This document shows positions 43,465-43,809 of a stretch of DNA of 64,000 nucleotides, one piece after another. Source of the DNA: Escherichia coli (GTDB lineage: Bacteria; Pseudomonadota; Gammaproteobacteria; Enterobacterales; Enterobacteriaceae); the NCBI RefSeq assembly GCF_046105845.1, contig NZ_CP151004.1; one strand, written 5' to 3'. The notes below the pieces were generated by a model that was not told the origin of the DNA, ran no database searches, and saw nothing but the letters and a program-made list of their open reading frames with translations. The translations under genes and the position numbers were made by a program. Each line of letters starts with the position of its first letter. Position 1 is the first letter of the stretch.

Positions 43465-43809
43465 TGTGTGAGTCAGTGCAGAATCGGATTAGCCCGTTTT
43501 TAGCCATCGGTAGGGTAAAGTTTGATGGAAAATATGGGTTATGTGCCGATGTATCCCACAATGAAATAACCCTCGAGGGAAAGGAATCAGCGCGATGAAC
43601 AAATTCACGGTGTTTTGCTGCTAGGTGTGGTATTTCTCGGCTTTATTATTGTACCGTTCTTGATATGGCCGACGGTGGTTGCGCTGGCTGCTTGTATTAT
43701 TACGCTGAGTTTTCTGGGGAGATACTGTTCTCTATCCCGCTCATGATCAGGCGTATTTCACTTCTGGAATTACAACTTTGGTTATCGGTTGTATATGCGC
43801 TTTGTCCAT

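Follow-up and report, generated by a model that had tools for sequence, protein, structure and literature searches.

A probable composite pseudogene scar of a PstS/PstS/membrane-protein cluster between an auf-like fimbrial operon and glpD in Escherichia coli

The auf operon (aufABCDEFG) has been placed in the glpD..glgP region (PMC12928451). Across the 5,426 complete E. coli genomes that we searched, the glgP-glpD interval proved polymorphic, most E. coli carrying three genes there, which encode two PstS-family proteins (PstS1 and PstS2) and a 200-aa membrane protein. This hotspot corresponds to positions 35790-43970 of the window, as we call the whole stretch of 64,000 nucleotides analysed here, and at least five configurations were seen among the loci compared (L002-L006, L010 and L011): genes for a 502-aa PstS-family protein, a 330-aa PstS-family protein and the 200-aa protein (CREC_5, KOr021 and O157:H7 TW14359); a PstS gene followed by genes for 255-aa and 201-aa proteins (ST131 strain EC958); a deletion form with yzgL only (K-12); a phylogroup B2 auf operon followed by 236-, 255- and 201-aa reading frames; and the auf-like operon and scar of the window. 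In the intact cluster, exemplified by O157:H7 TW14359 (WP_000982774.1, WP_001032214.1 and WP_000981061.1) and also by CREC_5, the three genes are whole and have overlapping stop/start codons (TAATG). In K-12, yzgL is the 5' end of the first PstS gene (PstS1), marked as ‘incomplete; missing C-terminus’, and a deletion has joined it to the last ~60 nt of the gene for the 200-aa protein. In B2, all three frames downstream of the operon are intact in one of two strains; the other strain has an internal stop in the 201-aa gene.

The PstS/PstS/membrane-protein cluster is restricted to Escherichia. PstS1 (L003 1441-2949, 502 aa) has an N-terminal extension of ~240 aa that has no Pfam match and precedes PBP_like_2 (residues 244-482), and yzgL of K-12 is the start of this extension. 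PstS2 (L003 2975-3967, 330 aa) is a predicted lipoprotein with the motif LLAGC. The 200-aa protein contains several hydrophobic segments; it has no Pfam family, and Pfam and NCBIfam searches gave nothing usable. A homologue search found its relatives only in Escherichia (E. coli, E. albertii, E. marmotae and other Escherichia species), where they are named only ‘hypothetical’ or ‘putative membrane’ proteins. Nucleotide differences between E. coli alleles of the 200-aa gene reach ~25%.

The window is a piece of E. coli chromosome in which the glgP gene stops at 35790, the plus strand carries seven fimbrial genes at 36273-43464, and the convergent glpD gene runs from 45475 to 43970, followed by glpEG, glpR, rtcR and rtcBA. 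About 500 bp separate the last fimbrial gene from glpD, and the scar described here lies within this stretch. In all loci compared, the scar and the intact genes occupy the same glgP-glpD position on the strand of glgP. Further to the right, two blocks, 47000-48800 (rtcR) and 50600-51800 (rtcA-malT), are 93-96% identical to strain MEI003 while their flanks are ~99% identical, a pattern that indicates a recombination mosaic in the core genes right of the locus.

The seven fimbrial genes, which encode in order the major subunit, a chaperone, the usher, two minor subunits, a second chaperone and the adhesin, have NCBIfam matches of the Fim/Lpf/Bcf chaperone-usher type, and the island has a G+C content of 0.40 compared with 0.51-0.55 for the flanking genes. 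As a collinear operon lies at the same site in B2 and the auf operon has been placed there (PMC12928451), we call the window operon auf-like. The left island junction is at ~35806, just past the glgP stop codon. The right junction is at ~43494-43496, where homology to the B2 sequence behind the adhesin gene stops (43493) and the PstS1 3' end becomes recognizable (43496). The first-pass annotation had drawn attention to positions 43590-43780 as the right edge of the island; the true junction is ~100 bp to the left of this interval.

Within the adhesin gene (42334-43464), the N-terminal half (42200-43100) is only 85-93% identical to MEI003, another strain with the window arrangement, compared with ~99% for the rest of the island, and just one of the 227 genomes with the window arrangement is at least 99% identical to the window over 41600-43640. 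To judge from these identities, the receptor-binding part of the adhesin looks like a case of allelic replacement or diversifying selection.

The window arrangement (coverage of at least 80% of 43400-43980) was present in 227 genomes, and 4,140 genomes, these carriers included, matched some part of 43440-43830. In the island-less genomes among the 4,140, the match is to 43630-43803 and lies within the gene for a ~200-aa ‘hypothetical protein’. We consider, with a probability of roughly 0.93, that the interval behind the island is a scar without function, left by the three-gene cluster found between glgP and glpD in most E. coli. Its parts, together with the adjoining regions, are as follows.

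35806-43494, plus strand: auf-like chaperone-usher fimbrial island (open reading frames, NCBIfam, equivalent locus in RefSeq, junctions)
43496-43569, plus strand: last ~24 codons of PstS1, with internal stops (blastn to L003 2877-2949, L002 and L006)
43570-43594, plus strand: native PstS1-PstS2 spacer with the PstS2 Shine-Dalgarno sequence AAGGA at 43581-43585 (intact alleles)
43595-43626, plus strand: PstS2 start codon and first 11 codons (aligned to L003 2975-3006 and L002 2972-3004)
43627-43718, plus strand: membrane-protein codons ~11-42, the hydrophobic frame (megablast and blastn to L003 4001-4174)
43716-43719, plus strand: second frameshift, four G against five (or GGGAG) in intact alleles (alignments)
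43719-43796, plus strand: membrane-protein codons ~43-69, in a third frame (translations, BLASTP)
43797-43803, plus strand: GCGCTTT deletion junction (junction sequences, alignment)
43804-43969, no strand assigned: conserved region downstream of glpD, outside the pseudogene (alignment to K-12 and other alleles)

The homologies behind these assignments can be read directly from the alignments. Positions 43496-43626 matched the junction between the PstS1 end and the PstS2 start with 79-81% identity (E about 1e-26 to 1e-28), rising to 84-86% over an alignment core of 113-115 nt. For positions 43630-43803 the counterpart is the 5' portion of the gene for the membrane protein; 43631-43803 was ~92% identical to the closest allele in database searches (E 1e-60 to 2e-62), and a local pairwise match to the more distant B2 alleles gave ~76% identity (E about 1e-31). 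When the frame was repaired, the translation was 86% identical to residues 13-69 of the intact membrane protein (E 3e-23). With piecewise homology at E values of ~1e-26 to 2e-62 across the scar, the pattern did not arise by chance. The PstS-derived piece is more diverged from the intact alleles (about 80-86% identity) than the membrane-gene piece is from its closest one (~92%), a difference that we can only attribute to allelic mosaicism.

A MAFFT alignment of only ~65% identity had led to a different assignment, according to which the membrane-protein gene began at ATG 43595 and carried an insertion of 4-5 nt, while 43513-43594 belonged to the 3' end of PstS2. This assignment was overturned by blastn, which puts 43496-43626 on the PstS1-end/PstS2-start junction at 79-86%. 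The MAFFT alignment was misleading because the PstS1 and PstS2 paralogues share similar C-termini (..VEDVGYVPLY..) and the downstream genes begin with MNK/MMN.

Both of the reading frames described in the first-pass annotation are present. The 9-codon open reading frame (ATG AAC AAA TTC ACG GTG TTT TGC TGC TAG; MNKFTVFCC) has its stop codon at 43622-43624 and a good Shine-Dalgarno sequence nine bases ahead of its ATG. Overlapping it is the hydrophobic frame without an ATG, which stays open from 43570 up to the TGA codon 43744-43746. TTG 43615 is the first NTG codon in it, so that the longest NTG-initiated reading frame encodes 43 aa (MLLGVVFLGFIIVPFLIWPTVVALAACIITLSFLGRYCSLSRS), with a mean Kyte-Doolittle hydropathy that peaks at 2.56 in a 19-residue window. 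The suggestion that a disrupted gene had left a remnant at the insertion boundary is borne out by the homology to intact genes and by the lesions; the two alternatives offered with it, a leader peptide and a small membrane protein, gained no support. What had gone unnoticed is that the two frames are one gene, a fusion of the PstS2 start to the membrane-protein gene, and that a third frame (43719-43796) carries the homology onward.

The lesions themselves are equally direct observations. In the PstS1 remnant, the window reads ..G, stop, SLMENMGYVPMYPTMK, stop, where the intact gene reads ..GQSLVEDVGYVPLYPTMK, stop. The spacer behind it is the same as in intact alleles, GAAAGGAATCAGCG(A/C)(G/A)ATGAA, and the “strong” Shine-Dalgarno sequence is therefore the ribosome-binding site of PstS2. 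Intact PstS2 starts with ATGAATAAATTCACCGGTGTTTTACTATTAGG, encoding MNKFTGVLLLGTALLAGC with its lipoprotein signal-peptide motif; the window has ATGAACAAATTCAC-GGTGTTTTGCTGCTAGG, one nucleotide having been deleted in codon 5 (CC to C, at 43608/43609). The lost C shifts the frame, so that translation from the ATG yields MNKFTVFCC and a stop, and the PstS2 residues GVLLLG pass into the hydrophobic frame. This frame lacks a start codon of its own because its start was the ATG of the 9-codon frame, from which the 1-nt deletion has severed it. The 9-codon frame and the ATG-less hydrophobic frame are thus one former reading frame, split by one lost base.

Downstream of PstS2 codon 11, ~0.99 kb is deleted and codon 11 of the membrane-protein gene is fused in frame (window, FLGFIIVPFLIWPTVVALAACIITLSFLG; intact protein, FLGFVIVPLLVWPMVVALAACIITLSFLG). 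There is no clear microhomology at this junction, and two to five bases at 43626-43630 are assigned to neither side with confidence. The shortening of the G run from five to four ends the hydrophobic frame early, at TGA 43744-43746, through the out-of-frame residues RYCSLSRS. Beyond the G run the homology continues in the third frame, part of a 94-aa open reading frame at 43665-43949 (GEILFSIPLMIRRISLLELQLWLSVVYAL), up to a 442-bp deletion between 7-bp direct repeats (L003 4168-4174 and 4610-4616). This deletion has removed codons ~70-200 and the stop codon, so that the gene now runs straight into the conserved stretch with REP elements that lies downstream of glpD and has an inverted REP-like pair at 43809-43819 and 43897-43907.

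Two side observations concern this REP region. A full-length Rfam match to the sRNA family ES036 (CssrF) lies at 43843-43885 on the plus strand, flanked by the two REP-like arms (score 46.8 bits, gathering threshold 37.6, E 2.7e-8); K-12 also has this sequence, and no literature on the match was found in the library searched. Strain AST215 carries an IS110-family element, IS621 (L009 2048-3028), in the REP stretch that separates the scar from glpD, at about window position 43880-43890; the AST215 scar is 100% identical to that of the window, which lacks the insertion.

In this lineage the auf-like operon took over the end of the cluster next to glgP and left of PstS1 only its final ~73 bp. We infer that the remainder decayed afterwards, through four lesions: the deletion of ~0.99 kb, which brought codon 11 of PstS2 and codon 11 of the membrane-protein gene together in one frame; the missing C in codon 5 of PstS2, which severed the inherited ribosome-binding site and ATG from the rest; the missing G in the G run, which produced the second frame shift; and the 442-bp deletion between the GCGCTTT repeats, which eliminated the distal two thirds of the membrane-protein gene. 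Among the loci compared, no allele was found that combines the auf type of the window with intact downstream genes.

All 227 carriers are at least 99% identical to the window over 43440-43830, and the four that were examined show no indels and zero to three substitutions. The lesions are present in the carriers sampled. The short open reading frame occurs only in these near-identical carriers; elsewhere the same codons lie within the 200-aa reading frame. In all four carriers examined, RefSeq labels the equivalent of window positions 43603-43817 as ‘hypothetical protein; frameshifted; incomplete; missing C-terminus’. Identity among carriers is 99.4-100% in the scar compared with 92-97% in the adjacent aufG and 94-97% in glpD, which might be taken as a sign of selection on the scar. 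This reading was rejected on a sliding comparison over 18.5 kb, in which the whole island is ~99% identical and the divergent parts are the first, N-terminal half of the adhesin gene (down to 85%) and the core-gene mosaic blocks. As the identity of the scar equals the island baseline of ~99%, it probably reflects a young haplotype, that is, recent common descent, rather than constraint. With so little variation among the carriers, the near-invariance of the scar says nothing about selection.

If the scar is not simply inert, the remnant could have been co-opted as a membrane peptide of 39-43 aa with one or two helices, re-initiated at TTG 43615 or GTG 43627; we regard this as very improbable. 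The idea gains something from the strong hydrophobicity, from the position of the TAG within a few bases of the possible restart codons, and from the near invariance of the sequence in the 227 genomes, but this invariance is that of the island as a whole, and the C-terminus RYCSLSRS is out-of-frame read-through from the homopolymer slip. The hydrophobic frame contains no ATG and has been separated from that of the 9-codon frame, no purine-rich Shine-Dalgarno sequence is visible upstream of TTG 43615 or GTG 43627, and the sole Shine-Dalgarno sequence serves ATG 43595, which is in another frame. Neither the exact 43-aa TTG-start sequence nor the 94-aa sequence occurs among ~15 billion predicted proteins, and RefSeq treats the stretch as a pseudogene. 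For such a peptide to exist, ribosomes on read-through auf mRNA would have to re-initiate after the TAG at 43622 and its product acquire a role, a course of events to which we give little credence. If it were true, the first transmembrane segment of a dead gene would have been kept as a peptide, e.g., in the membrane alongside Auf fimbrial biogenesis.

The other proposal, that the 9-codon frame is a leader peptide or upstream open reading frame controlling a downstream gene by attenuation or translational coupling, has in its favour the AAGGA, its 9-nt spacing and the ATG, and the lack of a terminator behind the last fimbrial gene, which makes co-transcription probable, but it is hardly credible and largely refuted already by the missing target gene, since no intact gene or operon follows on the same strand (only the truncated remnant and REP elements, and then the convergent glpD), the Shine-Dalgarno sequence and ATG are inherited unchanged from PstS2, the shortness of the frame is the product of the 1-nt deletion, and there is neither a terminator-like hairpin or attenuator nor any unusual RNA structure, folding of the scar being no better than that of shuffled sequence (z = -0.21).

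Other searches are consistent with the scar reading. No sigma-70-like promoter was found in 43300-44050, no Rfam match lies inside 43590-43780, and no terminator-like site was found in or after the scar (none beyond 43359); two such sites lie inside aufG, a number equal to chance expectation. As there is no terminator between aufG and the scar, the PstS2 ribosome-binding site is possibly still translated on read-through transcripts. If it loads ribosomes on read-through auf transcripts, this would be incidental. On all these grounds we infer that the scar lacks a function.

A further open reading frame of 45 aa (43461-43598, plus strand; MMCESVQNRISPFLAIGRVKFDGKYGLCADVSHNEITLEGKESAR) crosses the PstS1 remnant in a different frame. 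Gene finders have called it as a protein on 654 contigs, and database entries for its relatives bear the name ‘hypothetical protein’; we regard it as almost certainly spurious.

The scar is an ordinary pseudogene at a polymorphic locus, and genome annotation has already flagged it as such; a literature search on the remnant (yzgL, ES036/CssrF and aufG) found nothing. The present analysis contributes the origin of the scar from several genes, the exact nature of its lesions and a corrected position for the island boundary, and it refines the pseudogene call, since the remnant combines pieces of three ancestral genes and is not the fragment of one. The importance of this beyond tidy annotation is small. 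The case does illustrate, however, that a single-base deletion in a decaying gene can yield both a short open reading frame with a perfect Shine-Dalgarno sequence and a hydrophobic frame without a start. Screens for small proteins or leader peptides should compare their candidates with the intact alleles of other strains, and not with K-12 alone.

How the locus stands among known systems can be summarized by three comparisons. The auf locus of phylogroup B2/ExPEC strains agrees with the window in its insertion site, in the order of its seven genes and in having a short remnant of the PstS1 3' end right behind the adhesin gene. The two operons are ~73% identical at the nucleotide level (only the distal ~1.9 kb, aufF-aufG, was queried), and their collinear proteins are 68-85% identical; where B2 goes on with its three reading frames, the downstream genes of the window have collapsed into the scar. 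K-12, to which the first-pass annotation had pointed for comparison, proved unhelpful, as it has deleted the stretch in another way. Like the scar, its yzgL stems from the decay of the ancestral cluster at this chromosomal site, but it arose by a separate, independent deletion, and K-12 has no fimbrial island and retains nothing of 43496-43796. The intact cluster, finally, is the source of all parts of the scar (the 3' end of PstS1, the spacer including its Shine-Dalgarno sequence, the PstS2 start and membrane-protein codons 11-69), and of its roughly 3.1 kb the window retains about 300 bp, with two frameshifts and two internal deletions.
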